DNA of 64,000 bases from Kiritimatiellia bacterium (GTDB lineage Bacteria; Verrucomicrobiota; Kiritimatiellia; JAKQHR01): assembly GCA_050178035.1 (NCBI GenBank), contig JBFXGK010000019.1, positions 54-64,053 of the forward strand. Reading direction: 5' to 3'. Below are positions 2,547 through 63,778 of this stretch, piece by piece. Every line of letters begins with the position of its first letter. Positions within the stretch are counted from its first letter, which is position 1. A program made the position numbers and the translations under genes. The notes below the pieces were generated by a model that ran no database searches, was not told the origin of the DNA, and was given only the letters and a program-made list of their open reading frames with translations.

Positions 2547-4876
2547 ACGTCAAGGATTTGAAAGTTGTAAATCACTCCGTCGAAAAAGTGGACGCCATGG
2601 CGCTCGCGCTCGGCAAATCCCTCTATGTGGCTGACCTGAAGCCCGAGGACTGCCTGCACGTCAAGATGCTCTGGAGCCCGCACGCGCACGCGCGCATCAA
2701 GTCCATTGATGTCTCCAAGGCCGAGAAAATGAAGGGCGTCCACGCGGTGCTCTGGCACGGCAATGTGCCGCGCGTCGCACACTGCACCGCCGGCCAGGGC
2801 TATCCCGAGCCGTCGCCCTACGACACCTTCATGTTCGACACCAAGGTCCGCTATGTCGGCGACCGCGTCGCCGCCGTTTGCGCGGAAACCAGGGAAATCG
2901 CCCAGGCCGCCGTCGAGGCCATCAAGGTCGAATACGAAGTGCTTCAGCCCGTGCTCTCGATCTGGGACGCCCTCAAGCCGGGCGCGCCCATTATCCACGA
3001 CGAGCCCGACTGCTCGATTCCGATTCCCGTGCCCTATGAACCTCAAAACAATGTCGTTGCCCGCCTCGAAATGAAGGTCGGCGATGTTGAAAAGGCGTTC
3101 AAGGACTCGGATTTTGTTTTTGATGAGGAATACGAGACGCAGTACGCGCAGCACTGCCCGATGGAGACTTATGTCTGCTCGGCGCAGATTGACGCGCGCA
3201 ACCGCATCGTCATCACAACCAGCACGCAGGTGCCCTTCCACTGCCGGCGCATCGTCGCGCAGACGCTGCAGATTCCGGAAAAGCAGATCCGCGTGATCAA
3301 ACCCCGCATCGGCGGCGGCTTCGGCAGCAAGCAGGAAATCCTGCTGGAGGATGTCGTGGCCATGTTTGCGCTGCGGACCCAGAAGCCCGTGTTCTGGGAA
3401 TTCACGCGCCAGGAGAACTTCCTGACCGGACGCACACGCCATCCGATCCATTTCAAGATGAAGGGCGGCGTGAAGAAAGACGGGACCATCACCGGCTACA
3501 GCATGATCGCCACCTCCAACACCGGAGCCTACGGCGGCCACGGCCTGACCGTGATCGGCTGCTGCGGAAGCAAGGTGCTTCCGCTGTACCACATTGACAA
3601 CCTCTACTTCAAGGGGACCGTGTGCTACACCAACCTGCCGGTCGGCGGCGCCTACCGCGGATTCGGCGCCACTCAGGCGTTCTTCGGATTCGAGTCGCAG
3701 ATCGACATGATGGCCGAGGCCATCGGCATGGACCCGCTCGAGTTCCGCAAGAAGAACCACATCCTGCTTGGCGAAACCTCTCCGGTTTTCTCCGCGCTGG
3801 GCGAAGGCAAGGAAGGCGTGCCGATGGACATCAGCTCCTGCGCGCTGGATGAATGCATCCGCCAGGGCGCCGAGGAAATCGGCTGGAAGAACCGCACGCC
3901 TCACACCGGGAAATCGGGGCGCTACCGCCGCGGCATGGGCATGGCCTGCCTGATGCAGGGATCCAGCGTGCCGGAAATTGACATGGGCGCGGCCTCCATC
4001 AAGATGAACGACGACGGCTCCTTCAACCTGCTGATCGGCGCAACCGACCTCGGCACCGGAAGCGACACTGTCCTCGGGCAGATTGCCGCCGAAGCCATCG
4101 GGACGACGATTGACAAAATGATTGTCTACTCGTCCGACACCGACATGACGCCGTTCGATGTCGGCGCGTACGCCTCCAGCACGACCTATCTGAGCGGAGA
4201 GGCCGCCCGCAAGGCCGGTGCCAAGGTCAACAAGCAGATCCTTGAAGTCGCCGGGAAGATGCTGGACAAGAAGCCGGAAGATCTCGTGGCGGAAAACTCC
4301 GTTGTGACGGCAAAGGACGGCAGCGCAAAAGTGACGTTCGGAGAGATTGCGAAGTACTCGCTCTATATGAAGAACCAGTTCCAGATCATGGACTCGGCCT
4401 CGCACATCACGCACAAGTCCCCGCCCCCGTTTGCGGCCCACTTCGTCGAGATTGAAGTGGACACCTGGACCGGAAAAATCCGCGTGCTGAAGTACGTGGC
4501 CACTGTGGACTGCGGCACCGCCATCAACCCGAAGCTGGCCGAGGGCCAGACCGAGGGCGGACTGCTGAACGGAATCACCTACGCGCTGACGGAGGAGTAT
4601 CTGTTCAACGACAAGGGCCGCATGACCAACTCCACCCTGCAGCGCTATCATCTCTACTCGATGAGAGACCTGCCCAAGGTGAAGGCGATCCTGGTTCCGA
4701 GCTGGGAAACCACCGGCCCTTACGGCGCAAAGAGCGTTTCGGAAATCTGCATCAACGGCGCAGGCCCCGGAATCAACAACGCGCTCTACAACGCCTGCGG
4801 CATCCGGCTTCATTCCATGCCGTTCACGCCGGAAAAGGTGTGGAAGGCTCTTCAGGAAAAAGAGAAAAAGGCGTAA
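2543..4876 (+). CDS. Molybdopterin-binding large subunit of xanthine-dehydrogenase-family hydroxylase
   Basis: ATGA overlap with the upstream stop and RBS GGAGGTG. Start chosen at 2543 (MNVKDLK) rather than the ORF-track start at 2480, which overlaps the previous gene. Aldehyde-oxidase/XDH a/b-hammerhead and MoCo-binding signatures (GGGFGSK, AYRGFG). Confidence 0.85.
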   Translation: MNVKDLKVVNHSVEKVDAMALALGKSLYVADLKPEDCLHVKMLWSPHAHARIKSIDVSKAEKMKGVHAVLWHGNVPRVAHCTAGQGYPEPSPYDTFMFDTKVRYVGDRVAAVCAETREIAQAAVEAIKVEYEVLQPVLSIWDALKPGAPIIHDEPDCSIPIPVPYEPQNNVVARLEMKVGDVEKAFKDSDFVFDEEYETQYAQHCPMETYVCSAQIDARNRIVITTSTQVPFHCRRIVAQTLQIPEKQIRVIKPRIGGGFGSKQEILLEDVVAMFALRTQKPVFWEFTRQENFLTGRTRHPIHFKMKGGVKKDGTITGYSMIATSNTGAYGGHGLTVIGCCGSKVLPLYHIDNLYFKGTVCYTNLPVGGAYRGFGATQAFFGFESQIDMMAEAIGMDPLEFRKKNHILLGETSPVFSALGEGKEGVPMDISSCALDECIRQGAEEIGWKNRTPHTGKSGRYRRGMGMACLMQGSSVPEIDMGAASIKMNDDGSFNLLIGATDLGTGSDTVLGQIAAEAIGTTIDKMIVYSSDTDMTPFDVGAYASSTTYLSGEAARKAGAKVNKQILEVAGKMLDKKPEDLVAENSVVTAKDGSAKVTFGEIAKYSLYMKNQFQIMDSASHITHKSPPPFAAHFVEIEVDTWTGKIRVLKYVATVDCGTAINPKLAEGQTEGGLLNGITYALTEEYLFNDKGRMTNSTLQRYHLYSMRDLPKVKAILVPSWETTGPYGAKSVSEICINGAGPGINNALYNACGIRLHSMPFTPEKVWKALQEKEKKA

Positions 4877-40096: not shown

Positions 40097-41038
40097 CTAC
40101 AGAATTTCATGCAGGCGGCAGATTTTTGCGTCGGGGGAGACATAGCGGGCTTCGCACTCCAATGAGGCGCCCGTTTTCTCGCGTACGGCGTCTCGAACTT
40201 TGCGCGTAAGCGCAATGACATCGGCAGAGGTTGCCTCACCGCGATTGACAATAAAATTAGCATGTTTTTCGCTGACCTCCGCATCGCCGATGCGAAGGCC
40301 CTTGAGCCCCGCGTCCTCAATCAGTTTTCCCGGCGGACCGAGATGCTCCAAATGCCGGGGCAGCGCGGCAAAGACGGATCCGCAGGACGGGAATTCAAGC
40401 GGAAATTTATTGGCCCTGAGCTTTAGCGCCTGCCGGGCACGTTCGCGAATCTTTTCGGGGTCTGATCTTTTGCATTCCAGCTCGACGTGCAGAATGACCA
40501 GGAGCCGTTCATGAAATACCGACCGGCGGTAACCGAATTCGCATTCATCATGACTGAGACGGATGACCTGCCCTTTCTCATCCAGCGCCCAGACCTGGCG
40601 GACGCGTTCCCCGATGGTGTAACCGCTGCAGCCCGCATTCATGAAGACCATGCCGCCCAAGGTGCCCGGGATGCCCTCCAGAAATTCAAAACCCGCAAGG
40701 CCTTCGTTTTCGAGGGCGTGCGTCAAATTGGCCGACCGGATACCGGCCTCCGCCAGCACACTGACCCCGTCAATGTTAAGTGATGAAAAATTCCGGCCAA
40801 AGCGGATCAGCGCGCCGCGAATACCCTCGTCATCGAACAGCAGCTTGGCTCCGCCGCCAATGACAGCATATTTCATCTTTTTTGCACGGACATACTGGAT
40901 TGCATTTTGAATCTGCCTGGCATTGCCGGGTTCGATCAGCAAATCGCAGGTTCCCCCGATTTTCCAGGAACAGTGCTGTTTCAACCCCGTATTCTTGCGG
41001 AAATACCCAAGATCCCTTTCATTCAGTTCAATGCGCAT
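40097..41038 (-). CDS. murB: UDP-N-acetylenolpyruvoylglucosamine reductase (UDP-N-acetylmuramate dehydrogenase)
   Basis: FAD-binding PCMH domain (KIGGTCDLL, AVIGGGAKLLF) and C-terminal MurB domain (GSVFANP-like SCGSVFA). Confidence 0.8.
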   Translation of the reverse strand: MRIELNERDLGYFRKNTGLKQHCSWKIGGTCDLLIEPGNARQIQNAIQYVRAKKMKYAVIGGGAKLLFDDEGIRGALIRFGRNFSSLNIDGVSVLAEAGIRSANLTHALENEGLAGFEFLEGIPGTLGGMVFMNAGCSGYTIGERVRQVWALDEKGQVIRLSHDECEFGYRRSVFHERLLVILHVELECKRSDPEKIRERARQALKLRANKFPLEFPSCGSVFAALPRHLEHLGPPGKLIEDAGLKGLRIGDAEVSEKHANFIVNRGEATSADVIALTRKVRDAVREKTGASLECEARYVSPDAKICRLHEIL

Positions 41039-41048
41039 GAAATATTCC

Positions 41049-41549
41049 CTACTTCAGCAGCACGTTCACGATCATTTTTTCCCAAAGCCACTGGGCCCGG
41101 TCGCGGAACTGTTTGAAGCGCTTCAGGCGTTTCTCGAAAAAGGCCCAGTCGGGATCTTTCTTTACACCTGTCTGCCGGTGCGCTGCGACCGCGGCTTCCA
41201 TTTCGCTCATTAGGGCATCAGACGCTTCAATCTTCTGAGCGATGGCATCCAGCAGGGCCTTGCGGAATATTTTTCCAAACTCCTCATTGGCGCGGTAGAA
41301 ATCCTTGCGGTCGCCCTTGACCCACACGCGACTGACGGCGCCCCACTGCTCGAGCTGACGCACGGCCATGCTGGCGCTCCCCTTGCTGATACCGAGATTG
41401 TGCATCAGGTCGGCCAGCGTCTGCGGCTCGCGACAGAAATAGAGGTGGGCAAAAATCTGGCCGATAATGCGGCCGGCGCCAAAGGATTGCGAAAAGTTTC
41501 CGGCAGACTCGACGAAACGCTGACGCAGATCTTTCAGTTCATCAGGCAT
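41049..41549 (-). CDS. GbsR/MarR-type winged-helix transcriptional regulator
   Basis: GRIIGQIFAHLYF...EPQTLADLMHNLGISKGSASMAVRQLEQWGAV matches the GbsR-family HTH. Start set at MPDELK. Confidence 0.6.
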   Translation of the reverse strand: MPDELKDLRQRFVESAGNFSQSFGAGRIIGQIFAHLYFCREPQTLADLMHNLGISKGSASMAVRQLEQWGAVSRVWVKGDRKDFYRANEEFGKIFRKALLDAIAQKIEASDALMSEMEAAVAAHRQTGVKKDPDWAFFEKRLKRFKQFRDRAQWLWEKMIVNVLLK

Positions 41550-41599
41550 GGCAACACCCCACAAGGCAGAAATTTCGGATTAGTGGAACGAAAGGAAAC

Positions 41600-45690: not shown

Positions 45691-45926
45691 CGTGTTTGGG
45701 GGCGCGTTTATCCACCAACCCGGAGGCAGACTTCGTCCCGGTGAAATCCCGGCGGGACGGGATTGCACGGACCGCAATCTAATTTCCGGACGTCACGCAT
45801 ACGCATAACGTTCAATACGCATTGAACATATCATACGACACGGCAGACGCAAGAACAATGCGCCAAAATCTTTTTTCTTGGGGGAGGCGGCTCCGGTCTG
45901 ATAGTCTCATAAACAGTGTTCTGACC

Positions 45927-46748
45927 ATGAATACCTTTTTCGAACTGGTGATCGCAGAACTCCTGTCGCAAGGCGTTCTTCGGCGCGACAGCCGCATCCT
46001 GGTGATGTGCGGCGGCGAAACCGACCACGCTGTGCTGATGAAGCTCGGCTTCACAAATGTTGTGATCAGCAATGTGGACGAGCGGAGAGACCGGAATGAC
46101 ACCGCCCAATACGCCCCGTTTGAGTGGAGCTACCAAAATGCCGAATCCATGACGTTCGAAGACCGCAGCTTCGAGTTTGTGATCGAGCACTCGGGCCTGC
46201 ACCACCTGCCCTGTCCACAGCGCGGCATTGCGGAAATGTACCGCGTGGCGTCAAAAGGAATCATCGGATTCGAGGCAAACCGCAATCTTTTCACCACCCT
46301 CGGCGTAAAACTTGGATTCGGACAGGAATATGAGACGGCGGCGGTTTTCTACAACGATCTCAAATACGGCGGCATTTCCAACAGCGCCATCCCCAATTAT
46401 GTCTACCGCTTCACCGCAGGCGATATCCGGCGAACCGTCTCAACGCTGAATCCCGCTGCACGGCACCGTTATCGGTTCTGGCACGCCACGCAAATCCCGG
46501 CGGCTGCGCAAAATATTAAAAATCCTCTGGTCCGCTTCGGATTGCGGACATTCGGAAGCCTGCTGAAGCTGGCGGGAAGATCTTGTCCGTTTCTCGCGAA
46601 CAACATGGCCTTCTTTGCGGCCAAACCCGCCATTCCGGATGATCTGCATCCATGGCTGAAGTTGGAAAACGGGAACATCGTTCCCAACCGGGAATTCCTG
46701 GAGAGAAAGTACCGGCCGGGCCGGGTTAACGGCCCAGCGCCTCTTTAA
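45927..46748 (+). CDS. Class I methyltransferase-like protein
   Basis: ILVMCGGETDHAVLMKLGF...FEFVIEHSGLHHL resembles the SAM-MT motif I/II layout. Start chosen at MNTFFEL. Alternative start at 45822. Confidence 0.5.
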   Translation: MNTFFELVIAELLSQGVLRRDSRILVMCGGETDHAVLMKLGFTNVVISNVDERRDRNDTAQYAPFEWSYQNAESMTFEDRSFEFVIEHSGLHHLPCPQRGIAEMYRVASKGIIGFEANRNLFTTLGVKLGFGQEYETAAVFYNDLKYGGISNSAIPNYVYRFTAGDIRRTVSTLNPAARHRYRFWHATQIPAAAQNIKNPLVRFGLRTFGSLLKLAGRSCPFLANNMAFFAAKPAIPDDLHPWLKLENGNIVPNREFLERKYRPGRVNGPAPL

Positions 46749-56412: not shown

Positions 56413-56428
56413 TGAAGGCGGGTATCAA

Positions 56429-56869
56429 ATGAAGCTGACAACCAAAAGTGAATACGCCCTGCTGGCCCTGCTGCACATGGCCCGGCAGGAGCCTGATGCA
56501 TGGACTTCCGTGGATGCCGTGGCGCGGGCGAAAAATATCCCTCCCAAATTCCTCGAGCAGATCCTGCTCGCGCTCAAGCGGGCGCGAATCCTTCGCAGCA
56601 CCAAAGGCAAGCACGGCGGCTATCAGCTCGCACGGCCCGCAAACCGGATTTCCATCGCTGAGATCGTCCGCGTGCTCGACGGCGCCCTCGCCCCCGTGGA
56701 ATCCGTCAGCGAATATTTTTATGAGTCCACCCCCATTGAAAGCGAGCAGGGGCTTGTCAGCGTTTTCAGAACCATCCGGGATTACATCTCGGACCTGCTG
56801 GAAAAAACCACCTTGGCGGATGTCTGCCAGATGAAAGTTAAAGGAAAGAGAAAAGGAGATTCAAAATGA
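56429..56869 (+). CDS. Rrf2-family transcriptional regulator (no Cys cluster)
   Basis: MKLTTKSEYALLALLHMA N-terminal wHTH. Lacks the IscR three-Cys motif. Stop overlaps the pstS start. Confidence 0.8.
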   Translation: MKLTTKSEYALLALLHMARQEPDAWTSVDAVARAKNIPPKFLEQILLALKRARILRSTKGKHGGYQLARPANRISIAEIVRVLDGALAPVESVSEYFYESTPIESEQGLVSVFRTIRDYISDLLEKTTLADVCQMKVKGKRKGDSK

Positions 56870-61154: not shown

Positions 61155-61162
61155 ACAAAAAG

Positions 61163-61190
61163 GGCCGCGCAGATGCGCGGCCCTTTCGTC
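61163..61190. terminator. Bidirectional rho-independent terminator between pstB (+) and the serA-like gene (-)
   Basis: GGGCCGCGC-agat-GCGCGGCCC stem, flanked by an A-run (aaacaaaaa) 5' and TTTCGTCT 3'. Confidence 0.6.
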
Positions 61191-61208: not shown

Positions 61209-62159
61209 TTATTTCACCGCATGCAGCGGCTTGCCGGTGCTCTTGTAGGCCTTCACGATGTTGATCACTTCTTCCGCAACCGCTTCCGAAGCCTGGTCCG
61301 TCGAGGCCCCGACGTGCGGCGTGGCGCCCATAACCATCGCGGCCAGCTCCGTGTCCGCAAAAGTCTTGTCCTGCGCCGCGGGTTCGTTTTCATAAACATC
61401 CAGGCCGACGCGCAGGCCCTTCTCTTTGATCGCAGTCTTCAGCGCGGCCGTATCCACCACCTCGCCGCGGGCGCAGTTGATGAAAATTGCGCCTTTTTTC
61501 ATGGCCGCAAAGAATTCCGCGTTGAAGAAATGCGCCGTGGCCGGAACCGCGGCAATATGCACGGTGACCACATCGGACTTCGCGGCCAGGTCCAGCTTCG
61601 TGGCGCAGTGCCCTACGCCCAGCGATGCGGCCTTCTCGGGGGTCAGGTCAATATCCCATGCGACGATGTTCATCTCCATGCCCTTCGCGCGGCTGGCGAC
61701 GGCCTTGCCGATCGCGCCCATGCCCATCACGCCCAGTGTGCGGCCCTTGAGCCCGCGCGCCTTGCCGTATTCCTTCTTGTTCCACACGCCGTTGCGCATG
61801 TCCGCCGTAGCGTTCACAATTCGGCGGTCGGCGGCAATCATCATGCCGATTGCAAGCTCGGCCACGGCATCGGTGTTTTTGCCGGGCGTGTTGCTCACAA
61901 AAACCCCCTTCGCCTTTGCGGCGGCGCAGTCAATCGTATTCACACCGGCGCCGGCGCGAATGATCACCTTCAGCGCTGATGCGGCTTCAATCACGGCTTT
62001 GGAAACCTTCGTCGAGCGCACGATGAGGATTTCCGCATCGCCGATCGCGGCGGGCAGGCCTTCCGCGCCCACATCGGGCTTTGAAATCACTTCCGCTCCC
62101 AGCGCGGTCAGCGCCTTGGAAGCCGTATCCGACAACTTGTCTGCAACCAGAATCTTCAT
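61209..62159 (-). CDS. D-isomer-specific 2-hydroxyacid dehydrogenase (short-form D-3-phosphoglycerate dehydrogenase-like)
   Basis: NAD-binding GMGAIG, catalytic R/E/H arrangement (NCARG...VDVYENEP) and a GGAGG RBS. Resembles SerA without the ACT domain. Confidence 0.75.
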   Translation of the reverse strand: MKILVADKLSDTASKALTALGAEVISKPDVGAEGLPAAIGDAEILIVRSTKVSKAVIEAASALKVIIRAGAGVNTIDCAAAKAKGVFVSNTPGKNTDAVAELAIGMMIAADRRIVNATADMRNGVWNKKEYGKARGLKGRTLGVMGMGAIGKAVASRAKGMEMNIVAWDIDLTPEKAASLGVGHCATKLDLAAKSDVVTVHIAAVPATAHFFNAEFFAAMKKGAIFINCARGEVVDTAALKTAIKEKGLRVGLDVYENEPAAQDKTFADTELAAMVMGATPHVGASTDQASEAVAEEVINIVKAYKSTGKPLHAVK

Positions 62160-62195
62160 TTCATTCCTCCGTTTTAATATTCACAATCCCGAAAC

Positions 62196-62325
62196 TTGCC
62201 GCCCTGTATAGCGGGAACACCCCGCCCCTGCAAGCCCGCGATTTTCCAATCATTGGAAATTCTGACTCGAAAAGTTCCAACCATTGGAAGTTTTTCAGGC
62301 AAAAGTTCCAATCATTGGAACTTTT
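62196..62325 (-). promoter_or_regulatory. Sigma70-type promoter (-35 TTGCAG / 17 nt / -10 TATACA) with three upstream TTCCAAT-n-ATTGGAA palindromes at 31-bp spacing
   Basis: On the - strand the -10 is 62205-62210 and the -35 is 62228-62233. Palindromes lie at 62244-62258, 62275-62289 (one mismatch) and 62306-62320. Confidence 0.55.
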
Positions 62326-62373: not shown

Positions 62374-62889
62374 TCAACTGCGCTTCAGATAAAAGGAAAT
62401 CAGGTAAACCGCAACGGAAATCGCGATGTAACCGAATTCGACGCGGTTCTTTTTGGGCGCGTCCCCGCGCGAGTGCGTGATGTCCAGCACGGCCTGATGC
62501 AGCAGGAAAGTGTAGAGCACAAAATAGAGAAAGGGAATCACATGCACATGGATTGGATAGTCACCGATTTCCTTTTTGAACAGCGAAAGGATCCATCCGA
62601 TCTGCGTGTAGATTCCGAGGAGGCCCAGCCCGGCGTTGATAAACATCCATTTGACTTCGTCGCGGCCGAAGATGGCGAGATAGAATATCGTATAGACAAA
62701 AATTGCAATGCCGCCGTGCGCATACAGGAACGCCACCGGCGGGCCATTTTTGGCATAGGCCATGGCAAACCCCGACGCGCCAAACGCCAGCATGTGGATC
62801 AGGAAAAATGGATAAACCGAGTACCACGGGATTTCGGATCCCTGCGCATAGCGCCTGTTGTTCATCGTCATTTCGCTGTGAATTTTCAT
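62374..62889 (-). CDS. Hypothetical integral membrane protein
   Basis: 5-6 TM helices. Start chosen at MKIHSEM, which abuts the upstream stop. Confidence 0.45.
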   Translation of the reverse strand: MKIHSEMTMNNRRYAQGSEIPWYSVYPFFLIHMLAFGASGFAMAYAKNGPPVAFLYAHGGIAIFVYTIFYLAIFGRDEVKWMFINAGLGLLGIYTQIGWILSLFKKEIGDYPIHVHVIPFLYFVLYTFLLHQAVLDITHSRGDAPKKNRVEFGYIAISVAVYLISFYLKRS

Positions 62890-62893
62890 AGCT

Positions 62894-63625
62894 CTAAAAC
62901 GACAGCACGAGTCCGGCCACAGCATAATGGAACAGGGCAAAGGTGTACACCTCGTCGTTGTCGGCGCCGCCCTCCAGGATGCGATAGCCGGCCGTCAGCG
63001 CGAGGCGGGGACTGAAATCGTACCGCATCGCAAAAAGCACATCCTCCGCCCGCCCCTGCGGCGCGGCCAGCGCTTCGCCGTCAACCAGCAGATGAATTTT
63101 TTCAAAAGGCGTCCAGGTGACGCTGAAACTCAGCAGCGGAACAACGCCCGTGTTCTCCTTCTCTGATTCCATGCCGCCGCCTTCCAGTTTAATGGAGGCA
63201 TCGCGCACCTTGAGCGCCCCGCCGAAGCTGAATGTCCATTTGTCTGTTTCGCGGAAGATATAACGATAAATCAGGCGGTACGAGTCAAACCGGAAGGTGG
63301 CCTCAACCGGCGTTCCCGCGGGGAAGATGTCGCCATTGAAATCCGTATCACGGGCCAGCACCCCCTCGGCATCCATGGTCAGCGGGGCCGCCAGAAAACC
63401 GACCCAGTGCCTGTCCGCAAAGATGCATCCGTAACGGGCCCTGAAGGCGACGGTTTCATCGGCTTCCAGATCATCCGTCAGCGAAAACCTTGTGCCGGAA
63501 TCACCGGGAATGGCGGCATCGTTGTAGCCCGGAAAGACATAACCGGCCTCAAGGTCGAGAGTGTGCTGTCCGGACGAAGTGCAGGCCAGCCCGATCAGGC
63601 ATAAAAACGCAGCGACATTCCTCAT
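62894..63625 (-). CDS. Outer-membrane beta-barrel protein (hypothetical)
   Basis: Signal peptide MRNVAAFLCLIGLAC. Amphipathic strands. C-terminal LVLSF. Confidence 0.5.
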   Translation of the reverse strand: MRNVAAFLCLIGLACTSSGQHTLDLEAGYVFPGYNDAAIPGDSGTRFSLTDDLEADETVAFRARYGCIFADRHWVGFLAAPLTMDAEGVLARDTDFNGDIFPAGTPVEATFRFDSYRLIYRYIFRETDKWTFSFGGALKVRDASIKLEGGGMESEKENTGVVPLLSFSVTWTPFEKIHLLVDGEALAAPQGRAEDVLFAMRYDFSPRLALTAGYRILEGGADNDEVYTFALFHYAVAGLVLSF

Positions 63626-63684
63626 CTTTATCCTCACCCCTGCTGATTCCGGACGCGGTTTGTTCATTTCTCAAATCACCTTGT

Positions 63685-63744
63685 GCCGCCCTATGTATCC
63701 CGAACGCCACGCCCCTGCAAGCCCGCGATTTCCAATCACTGGAA
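63685..63744 (-). promoter_or_regulatory. Second copy of the TTGCAG-17-TACATA promoter with one TTCCAATcACTGGAA palindrome
   Basis: The sequence from 63684 to 63750 is ~85% identical to 62195-62260. The -10 is 63692-63697, the -35 is 63715-63720, the palindrome is 63730-63744. Confidence 0.5.
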
Positions 63745-63778
63745 ATTTCAAATGCAAAAAACCTTTTAGGGCTTTTGG

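Follow-up and report, generated by a model that had tools for sequence, protein, structure and literature searches.

Phased palindrome arrays in Kiritimatiellia: an intergenic repeat with the apparent geometry of operator arrays

A stretch of 64,000 nucleotides from a Kiritimatiellia bacterium (GenBank assembly GCA_050178035.1, contig JBFXGK010000019.1, positions 54 to 64,053 of the forward strand; hereafter the window) carries four copies of a 15-bp palindrome, TTCCAATnATTGGAA. Three of them form an array upstream of a gene for a serA-like dehydrogenase, and the fourth lies ahead of a pair of genes encoding a 243-amino-acid (aa) signal-peptide protein and a 171-aa membrane protein (Table 1). 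A search of the window with the pattern TTCCAATNATTGGAA, in which up to 2 mismatches were allowed, returned these four sites against 0.27 expected by chance, and none of 100 shuffled sequences gave as many; with 3 mismatches allowed there were six matches against 3.4 expected, the additions being at background level only. The centres of the first three palindromes lie exactly 31 and 31 bp apart, and Tandem Repeats Finder reports a period of 31 at the array, with 2.6 copies and 80% matches. Both the palindromes and their 31-bp phasing, pointed out in a preliminary description of this DNA, are thus confirmed.

Read on the minus strand, two of the palindromes stand just ahead of promoter-like hexamers, as the first element of two copies of a cassette, A and B (approximately 62195-62260 and 63684-63750), which are about 85% identical in a pairwise alignment counted by hand. 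Each consists, in order, of a palindrome, AATCGCGGGC (one base shorter in cassette B), TTGCAG, 17 nt, TATACA or TACATA, and GGGCGGCA. The pattern CTTGCAG-N17-TAYAYA has exactly two matches in the 64 kb, both at the cassettes, against 0.09 expected, and the duplicated promoter-like cassette that had also been described therefore stands. In their hexamers, 17-nt spacer and distance to the start codon, both cassettes conform to the pattern of a sigma-70 promoter, with consensus matches of 4/6 plus 4/6 and of 4/6 plus 3/6. A sigma-54 reading of the GG...TTGCA in the cassette was rejected on inspection of the sequence because the distance from GG to GC is 15-16 nt, not 12.

The arrangement ahead of the dehydrogenase gene is conserved within the genus. 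The dehydrogenase sequence is unchanged on a contig of a same-species metagenome-assembled genome (MAG), GCA_029559795.1 (locus L001), and on one Logan contig, and loci L003 and L084 represent a sister species with 95% dehydrogenase identity. The number of palindromes ahead of the gene is three in the window, two in L001, three in L003 and two in L084, and the 31-bp spacing recurs in the sister species. AATCGCGGGCTTGCAGG and TATACAGGGCGGCA are kept in the sister species while the 17-nt promoter spacer has diverged, and in L003 the promoter hexamers and the array are conserved despite a different 17-nt spacer, a pattern consistent with a genuine -35/-10 promoter preceded by an array of variable copy number. 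Beyond the genus, the identity of dehydrogenase orthologues falls from 90-95% directly to 66%, which precludes promoter comparison at intermediate distance. In a metagenome scan, the extended cassette (palindrome plus AATCGCGGGCTTGCAGG) turned up, apart from 5 chance matches, at just two loci, those of the dehydrogenase and of the 243-aa/171-aa operon in this genus; a role as a widespread promoter module was rejected on these grounds. The sister species carries the dehydrogenase cassette only, and the confinement of the cassette to two loci of one genus points to local duplication of a promoter module. At L001 3806-4030 the 243-aa gene is deleted to a short remnant, so that cassette B now stands about 170 nt ahead of the 171-aa membrane gene.

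Table 1. Features of the palindrome-bearing region and their positions in the window
Feature	Position	Strand	Remarks
Distal palindrome, TTCCAATCATTGGAA, extended AAAAGTTCCAATSATTGGAACTTTT	62306..62320		Perfect match; centre at about -115, inferred from the hexamers
Middle palindrome, TTCCAACCATTGGAA	62275..62289		1 mismatch; 31 bp to either neighbour; centre at about -84
Proximal palindrome, TTCCAATCATTGGAA	62244..62258		Perfect match; end 10 nt upstream of the -35; centre at about -53
Conserved AATCGCGGGC, cassette A	62234-62243	-	Immediately upstream of the -35
Predicted -35 TTGCAG, cassette A	62228..62233	-	Conserved in L001, L003, L084, L128 and L135
Predicted -10 TATACA, cassette A	62205..62210	-	17 nt past the -35; 45 nt ahead of the ATG at 62159
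G+C-rich conserved block GGGCGGCA, cassette A	62197..62204	-	Abuts the -10, discriminator/start-site region; also in L003
Lone palindrome of cassette B, TTCCAATCACTGGAA	63730..63744		1 mismatch; end 9 nt upstream of the -35
Cassette B core	63684..63721	-	CTTGCAG 63715-63721, 17 nt, TACATA 63692-63697, GGGCGGCA 63684-63691
316-aa D-2-hydroxyacid dehydrogenase	61209..62159	-	Pfam 2-Hacid_dh and 2-Hacid_dh_C; downstream of cassette A
243-aa signal-peptide protein	62894..63625	-	Outer-membrane barrel according to the preliminary description; first gene past cassette B
171-aa membrane protein	62374..62889	-	Stop codon 54 nt upstream of the distal palindrome

The palindrome itself proves to be a repeat of the class at large. 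When one genome per species was scanned for two palindromes with any gap of 6-36 nt (a spacing of 21-51 bp), at least 115 stretches matched, and the class-wide figures that follow rest on those listed. Almost all come from about 30 MAGs titled Kiritimatiellia or Kiritimatiellae or bearing vaguer Planctomycetes-Verrucomicrobia-Chlamydiae (PVC) labels. Among the matches listed, one is from Pontiella sulfatireligans, a cultured species, and several are from a Tichowtungia MAG; two, in Aliarcobacter and an alphaproteobacterium, look unrelated. The listed loci contain 493 sites in arrays of 2-7 palindromes, with the consensus tTTCCAAT[C/G]ATTGGAAa flanked by T- and A-tracts, and of 481 sites 98% have C or G as the centre base, a position left free in the search. 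MAGs that range from 53 to 68% G+C share one and the same motif. The full 15-mer was not found in the searchable open-access literature, in which the few matches to its 11-bp core all occur in unrelated papers, and the palindrome-array element appears to be undescribed.

The distances between neighbouring palindromes are as regular as the sites. Spacings of 31 bp (n=104) and 32 bp (n=111) together make up 215 of the 288 recorded, with shoulders at 30 and 33 bp, and smaller groups lie at 21-22 bp (n=35), 40-43 bp (n=5) and 52 bp (n=2), so that the peaks correspond to 3, 2, 4 and 5 helical turns, respectively. The modal value follows lineage, being 32 bp in 95 of 105 pairs in the genome bin-1020 and mostly 31 bp (98 pairs) in the other genomes, while three rumen MAGs have composite spacings such as 22-30-22-30-31 that recur at several loci. 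Of the bin-1020 sites, 158 are perfect, 34 have one mismatch, 13 have two and 2 have three (background 3); this scarcity of mismatched sites leaves no tail of decayed copies and indicates that the site sequence is constrained. The spacers behave differently. The last spacer of an array is about as similar to the flank that follows it as a null comparison predicts (0.31 vs 0.30), spacer length is constant, and neighbouring spacers within arrays are 0.46-0.51 identical against 0.39-0.40 for random pairs. Retention of 14 specified bases and of the inter-site distance while the spacer sequence drifts is characteristic of duplex-DNA binding sites that must also keep a set geometry. An orientation-specific extension of the bin-1020 spacers, RTTTGCG, was found to be unrelated to gene direction.

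Two further motifs accompany the arrays in particular genomes. In rumen Kiritimatiellae MAGs (L066 at about 801, L072 at about 1707, L098 at about 3079 and L120 at about 5496), a second motif, GATTGTGCAAAAT, lies 17-28 nt past the outermost palindrome on one side, perhaps as the core promoter of a portable module that combines array and promoter. In bin-1020 (L052), an 833-nt convergent gap holds about 10 copies of a different tandem repeat, ...ggcccagaatgaatccgggccggcgca..., with a palindrome pair on each side.

About 90% of the arrays are intergenic, as judged with a self-trained caller of open reading frames (ORFs). In the bin-1020 blocks they occupy 33% of tandem, 43% of convergent and 46% of divergent gaps, the gaps without arrays being very short (median 10-42 nt); the corresponding figures in the other genomes are 14%, 19% and 27%. 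Several of the arrays in convergent gaps are flanked by ORFs of high coding score. Beyond the array by which a block was selected, bin-1020 has about 1.9 arrays per 10 kb and several other MAGs have almost none. Loci L005, L006 and L136-L139 are free of the motif over lengths of 6-20 kb. The polarity of an array, as given by its centre base, bears no relation to the direction of the neighbouring gene (15 G vs 15 C on the sense strand), a result that favours symmetric recognition of duplex DNA over an RNA or directional signal. The proteins encoded next to arrays are functionally diverse: 77 of them match 96 Pfam families, and the NCBIfam names include pheS, pyrE, mreC, miaB, trpD, yggS, perR, a TetR-family regulator, an extracytoplasmic function (ECF) sigma factor, a Phd antitoxin and transporters. 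No functional enrichment was found among the downstream genes with either Pfam families or NCBIfam names. Upstream elements of rRNA or tRNA operons were likewise rejected, as 113 loci contain no rRNA and 5 tRNAs, one of which abuts an array; at L112 5037-5222, a four-site array fills the interval between the 3' end of tRNA-Glu (2 nt) and the start of an aspartate-semialdehyde dehydrogenase gene (19 nt). A phage origin was rejected because palindrome pairs occur on just 5 stretches of 4 IMG/VR contigs. One predicted viral contig, IMG/VR UViG_3300035698_006241, has typical three- and four-site arrays with 31-bp spacing (L124 3429-3505; L125 650-767 and 14358-14435), which include the symmetric variant TTCCAACGGTTGGAA.

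This distribution bears directly on the proposal of the preliminary description that the dehydrogenase, the barrel protein and the membrane protein make up a small regulon under a dimeric transcription factor of its own. Several features of the locus speak for such a regulon: both window arrays lie upstream of genes, only 2 of the approximately 13 intergenic gaps of the window carry the motif, public metagenomes show the extended cassette at these two transcription units alone, and the array at the dehydrogenase promoter is conserved in the sister species. However, in the nearest representative genome (JAKQHR) two more arrays lie 14 and 24 nt upstream of sigma-70-like promoters, those of a PerR-like gene (TTTACA-17-TAGATT) and of metG (TTTGCA-16-TATAAT), and class-wide the same phased arrays are found ahead of dozens of genes without functional relation and about as frequently in convergent gaps as in divergent ones. 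Two arrays per 64 kb would also extrapolate to more than 100 per genome. At least in related genomes, then, the palindrome recurs across the genome with no tie to promoters, which is the very observation that the preliminary description named as contrary to its proposal, and a small co-regulated regulon with its own regulator is now very improbable. What survives of the idea of a private mark is the extended cassette, whereas the palindrome on which it is built is a class-wide repeat.

A second alternative holds that the arrays are themselves transcription signals, with the AAT[S]AT centre serving as a -10-like hexamer or with a hairpin forming between palindromes in the transcript. In the promoter form of this explanation, the TTGGAA of one site sits 16-17 nt upstream of the AAT[S]AT of the next, and in a promoter scan TTGGCA-16-AATGAT did receive a score, the -10 falling within the distal palindrome; moreover, many arrays are 2-35 nt from start codons, with no room for a separate promoter, and canonical -10 hexamers are rare in array flanks. 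Spacings of 21-22 bp, however, are incompatible with -35/-10 geometry. In the hairpin form, the array would terminate or stabilise the upstream mRNA, here the transcript of the 243-aa/171-aa operon, whose end lies 54 nt short of the array. For the 95-nt array region the folding energy is -38 kcal/mol (z = -6.4), owing to pairing of the two distal palindromes, CTTTT follows the two distal sites in this genus, and array-filled convergent gaps lack an obvious intrinsic terminator. Against this, the terminator scan did not flag the window array as an intrinsic terminator, its stems contain 2-3 G-C pairs, the distal pairing has no proper U-tract, an A-run and not a T-run follows the site in most lineages, and this genome uses ordinary G+C-rich hairpin terminators, for example at 61158-61190. 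With Rfam covariance models at the gathering score, there was no match in the window, and in 20 array-bearing loci the matches were only to unrelated riboswitches and a group II intron; an RNA element was rejected on this result and on the absence of strand bias relative to genes. Both forms also conflict with the independence of array polarity from gene direction, with the about equal use of divergent and convergent gaps, which suits neither a promoter-only nor a terminator-only role, and with the whole-turn spacing, which is a feature of DNA in its duplex form. Arrays that act as transcription signals in their own right are accordingly an improbable explanation.

Among described systems, the closest geometric parallel is that of NrdR, whose tetramers bind two 16-bp palindromic boxes that are 15-16 or 25-26 bp apart, and do so best at whole turns between centres (PMC12051234). 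NrdR sites resemble the present arrays in having palindromic boxes of 15-16 bp, an unconserved 15-16-bp linker and about 31-32 bp (3 turns) between centres, with variants one turn longer and a lineage-dependent modal spacer length (PMC12051234; PMC13584703). The Kiritimatiellia arrays show this geometry, the linker being 16 bp in the window and the class-wide modes lying at 31-32, 21-22 and 42 bp between centres. The NrdR consensus, acaCwAtATaTwGtgt, is unrelated in sequence to the palindrome TTCCAATSATTGGAA, and NrdR sites are few per genome and confined to nrd promoters, whereas arrays here reach 7 copies and number in the hundreds per genome in some MAGs. No ribonucleotide reductase was found among the downstream genes examined, and tblastn detected no NrdR homologue near arrays. 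An NrdR box was therefore rejected, as sequence and target genes differ despite the same geometry.

The arrays of global regulators offer another comparison. In E. coli, Lrp at ilvIH, pap and serA, and Fis at -71, -102 and -143 of rrnB P1, occupy upstream arrays of approximately 15-bp sites with A+T-rich centres, spaced about 3 turns apart upstream of the -35; both are nucleoid proteins with diverse targets, and serA is a classic Lrp-activated gene. The Kiritimatiellia arrays share site size, A+T-rich centre, spacing of about 3 turns and many diverse targets with these systems. The differences are that Lrp and Fis sites are degenerate whereas the palindromes here are nearly invariant, and that arrays in 3'-3' gaps or abutting start codons are atypical of either protein. 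Fur-family regulators (Fur, PerR and Zur) recognise 7-1-7 inverted repeats with an AATnATT core, a description that the palindrome fits, and one array lies upstream of a PerR-like gene (L037). Here, however, the centre base is limited to C or G, and no known Fur-family regulon has a comparable copy number, 31-bp phasing or set of target genes.

In distribution, the arrays most resemble the repetitive extragenic palindromes (REPs), the bacterial interspersed mosaic elements (BIMEs) built from them and the REP doublets that form hairpins (REPINs), which are short extragenic palindromes of high copy number, clustered at characteristic distances in all classes of gap (PMC3116915; PMC3337134). It is thus necessary to consider that the Kiritimatiellia element is a selfish or neutral extragenic repeat of this kind, spread by transposition, tandem duplication or gene conversion, and that its position at promoters is incidental. 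Its high copy number, its largely intergenic location in every orientation class and the strain-variable number of palindromes ahead of the dehydrogenase gene all fit such an origin, as do the tandem-duplication traces of some arrays, the recurrence of the [22,30,22,30,31] pattern at several loci of the rumen MAGs and the preference for complementary centre bases, that is, inverted orientation, in bin-1020 pairs (52 vs 27). The anatomy of the element fits less well. The palindromes have no GTAG head and a weak, A+T-rich rather than G+C-rich stem, with single-site folding energies of -4.9 to -8.4 kcal/mol; in most genomes neighbouring sites have the direct, not the inverted, orientation (141 vs 28), and they are spaced in whole helical turns; and single spacers are less self-complementary than the null (2.71 vs 3.31 pairs of 8), so that no REPIN-type hairpin constraint acts on them. 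A REPIN-type hairpin was rejected on the last point, the inverted bias being modest and found only in bin-1020. Randomised spacers combined with retained site bases and spacer length, without decayed copies, are moreover a signature of selection, and the constancy of the motif across genomes of such different G+C content points the same way. We regard a REP-like repeat as an unlikely explanation on this evidence.

Genes resembling those of the REP-associated tyrosine transposases (RAYTs) are present in L062, L043 and L080. In bin-1020 (L062), the RAYT-like Y1 transposase gene at 3649-4245 has one upstream and about five downstream copies of a GTAG-type REP, TTCGTAGTCAAGCCCGTGAGGGCTGTG (3600-4440), a REP/RAYT system separate from the palindrome arrays of the same genome. 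A canonical REP/RAYT relationship was rejected because the RAYT-like gene is flanked by TTCGTAGTCAAGCCCGTGAGGGCTGTG and not by TTCCAAT palindromes, a result that applies to the approximately 1.1 Mb sampled, other RAYTs being possible elsewhere. The element thus unites features of two known kinds: it is distributed like extragenic palindromic repeats and has the geometry seen in phased operator arrays.

The anatomy, phasing and constraint of the sites, their distribution, their independence of orientation and the conservation of the local layout are direct observations. What we infer from them is that a protein binds the arrays and oligomerises there, as well as the direction of any effect on transcription. 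The reading we favour, to which we give about an even chance, is that the arrays are binding sites of a putative abundant, lineage-specific and symmetric dimeric protein with a global role, which oligomerises along a single helix face. Each 15-17-bp site would take one dimer, and neighbouring dimers would sit whole helical turns apart (31 bp, or 3 turns, in this genus), allowing mutual contact on one face and the assembly of a dimer of dimers, a longer filament or a wrap. Cooperative binding of a symmetric dimer on one helix face, already suggested in the preliminary description, still seems the best account of the anatomy. The presence of arrays in every gap orientation and beside unrelated genes favours a global architectural factor, such as a nucleoid-associated protein or global regulator, over a dedicated operon regulator. 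At the locus described here, with TATACA taken as -12 to -7, three dimers would occupy positions of about -53, -84 and -115 at the dehydrogenase promoter and one dimer a position of about -52 at the promoter of the 243-aa/171-aa operon in cassette B, and the upstream complex would most probably modulate recruitment of RNA polymerase at both promoters.

Several observations weigh against binding by such a protein. Arrays are about equally common in convergent and divergent gaps, and many lie 2-35 nt from a start codon or 8-30 nt past a stop codon, with the result that no single promoter-relative mechanism fits all of them. Canonical sigma-70 promoters show no positional enrichment beside arrays class-wide, and even within the genus the distance from palindrome to -35 is variously 9, 10, 14 or 24 nt, so that the array is not phase-locked to the promoter. 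Traces of tandem duplication in some arrays (adjacent spacers 0.51 identical vs a null of 0.39) suggest that the periodicity may be partly inherited rather than selected, and adjacent sites have the same centre base in 141 pairs and complementary ones in 28. Finally, no binder was identified: tblastn with Escherichia coli Lrp, AsnC, Fis, NrdR and IHF gave no match in about 1.1 Mb of array-bearing DNA, Lrp and AsnC having no match at E<=1e-3 in approximately 1 Mb of array-bearing loci plus the window. The one candidate suggested by proximity, the PerR-like protein of L037, whose gene is 76 nt from a three-site array, was also rejected. Four orthologous perR loci (L136-L139) have TAGTAATnATTACTA-type boxes ahead of perR and zero TTCCAAT sites in 6-8 kb each, and a Fur-family or PerR binder is thus discounted for this paralogue, since its orthologues use TAGTAATnATTACTA boxes. 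In the same four loci the 7-1-7 TAGTAATnATTACTA boxes lie at about 3950-4000 and 4440-4640, with an extra box ahead of an ahpC/ferritin gene in L136 and L139, an arrangement that resembles an ordinary PerR regulon of these PVC bacteria.

The genes that flank the window array offer some context. The 316-aa dehydrogenase resembles 3-phosphoglycerate dehydrogenase but is without an ACT domain; the homologues bear the name D-3-phosphoglycerate dehydrogenase, have a length of about 395 aa and in some cases include an ACT domain. The nearest homologues outside the genus belong to this longer type (approximately 395 aa, 66% identical), with no intermediates in the database. The 171-aa gene begins 4 nt past the stop codon of the 243-aa gene, which indicates that the two genes form an operon. 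Neither product has a Pfam match, and among more than 5000 homologues of the 243-aa protein the sole named one is from a Kiritimatiellia MAG. The window encodes two winged-helix regulators, an Rrf2 protein (56426-56869) and a MarR/IclR-like protein (41049-41564), and no link of either to the palindrome was found. A weak look-alike with 3 mismatches, TTCGGATTAGTGGAA, lies 10 nt upstream of the start of the MarR/IclR-like gene (41049-41588 region) and is at chance level. Between 56426 and 61190 the gene order is Rrf2-family regulator, pstS, a gene for a DUF2490 protein, pstC, pstA and pstB, with no phoU; this pst operon converges on the dehydrogenase gene, and the G+C-rich hairpin at 61158-61190 is common to both. 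Farther away, a long same-strand cluster of large genes spans about 10000-40000, its Pfam-checked neighbours being a MurB-like gene (40097-41038) and a methyltransferase gene (45822-46748). In L001, genes just outside the large-gene cluster match the Wzz, BBP2_2 and GHL10 families, and gene content suggests that the cluster may be a cell-envelope or exopolysaccharide locus.

For the locus described here, these results mean that one promoter module, recently duplicated and based on the common palindrome element, stands ahead of both the serA-like gene and the 243-aa/171-aa operon, and they carry the caution that a phased palindrome array need not be the private operator of an operon. The motif is also of use in annotation, as it marks intergenic DNA and Kiritimatiellia contigs. 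A bolder proposal, possible but doubtful at present, is that the arrays constitute a genome-wide system of punctuation, in which an architectural protein, abundant and specific in sequence, would polymerise along phased TTCCAAT[S]ATTGGAA arrays and set the boundaries of transcription units or supercoiling domains. The arrays may, on this proposal, mark a large share of intergenic regions, whether at promoters, between cistrons or at 3'-3' junctions, and such a system, if real, would be a sequence-defined counterpart of the diffuse roles of REP/BIME-gyrase/IHF or Fis/Lrp in enterobacteria. The near-invariant site and fixed spacing should make a binder easy to recover by DNA affinity in cultured relatives such as Pontiella, Kiritimatiella or Tichowtungia. 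If a protein does bind the arrays, it would be a major and unstudied organiser of transcription or of the nucleoid in a class of environmental and gut polysaccharide degraders.

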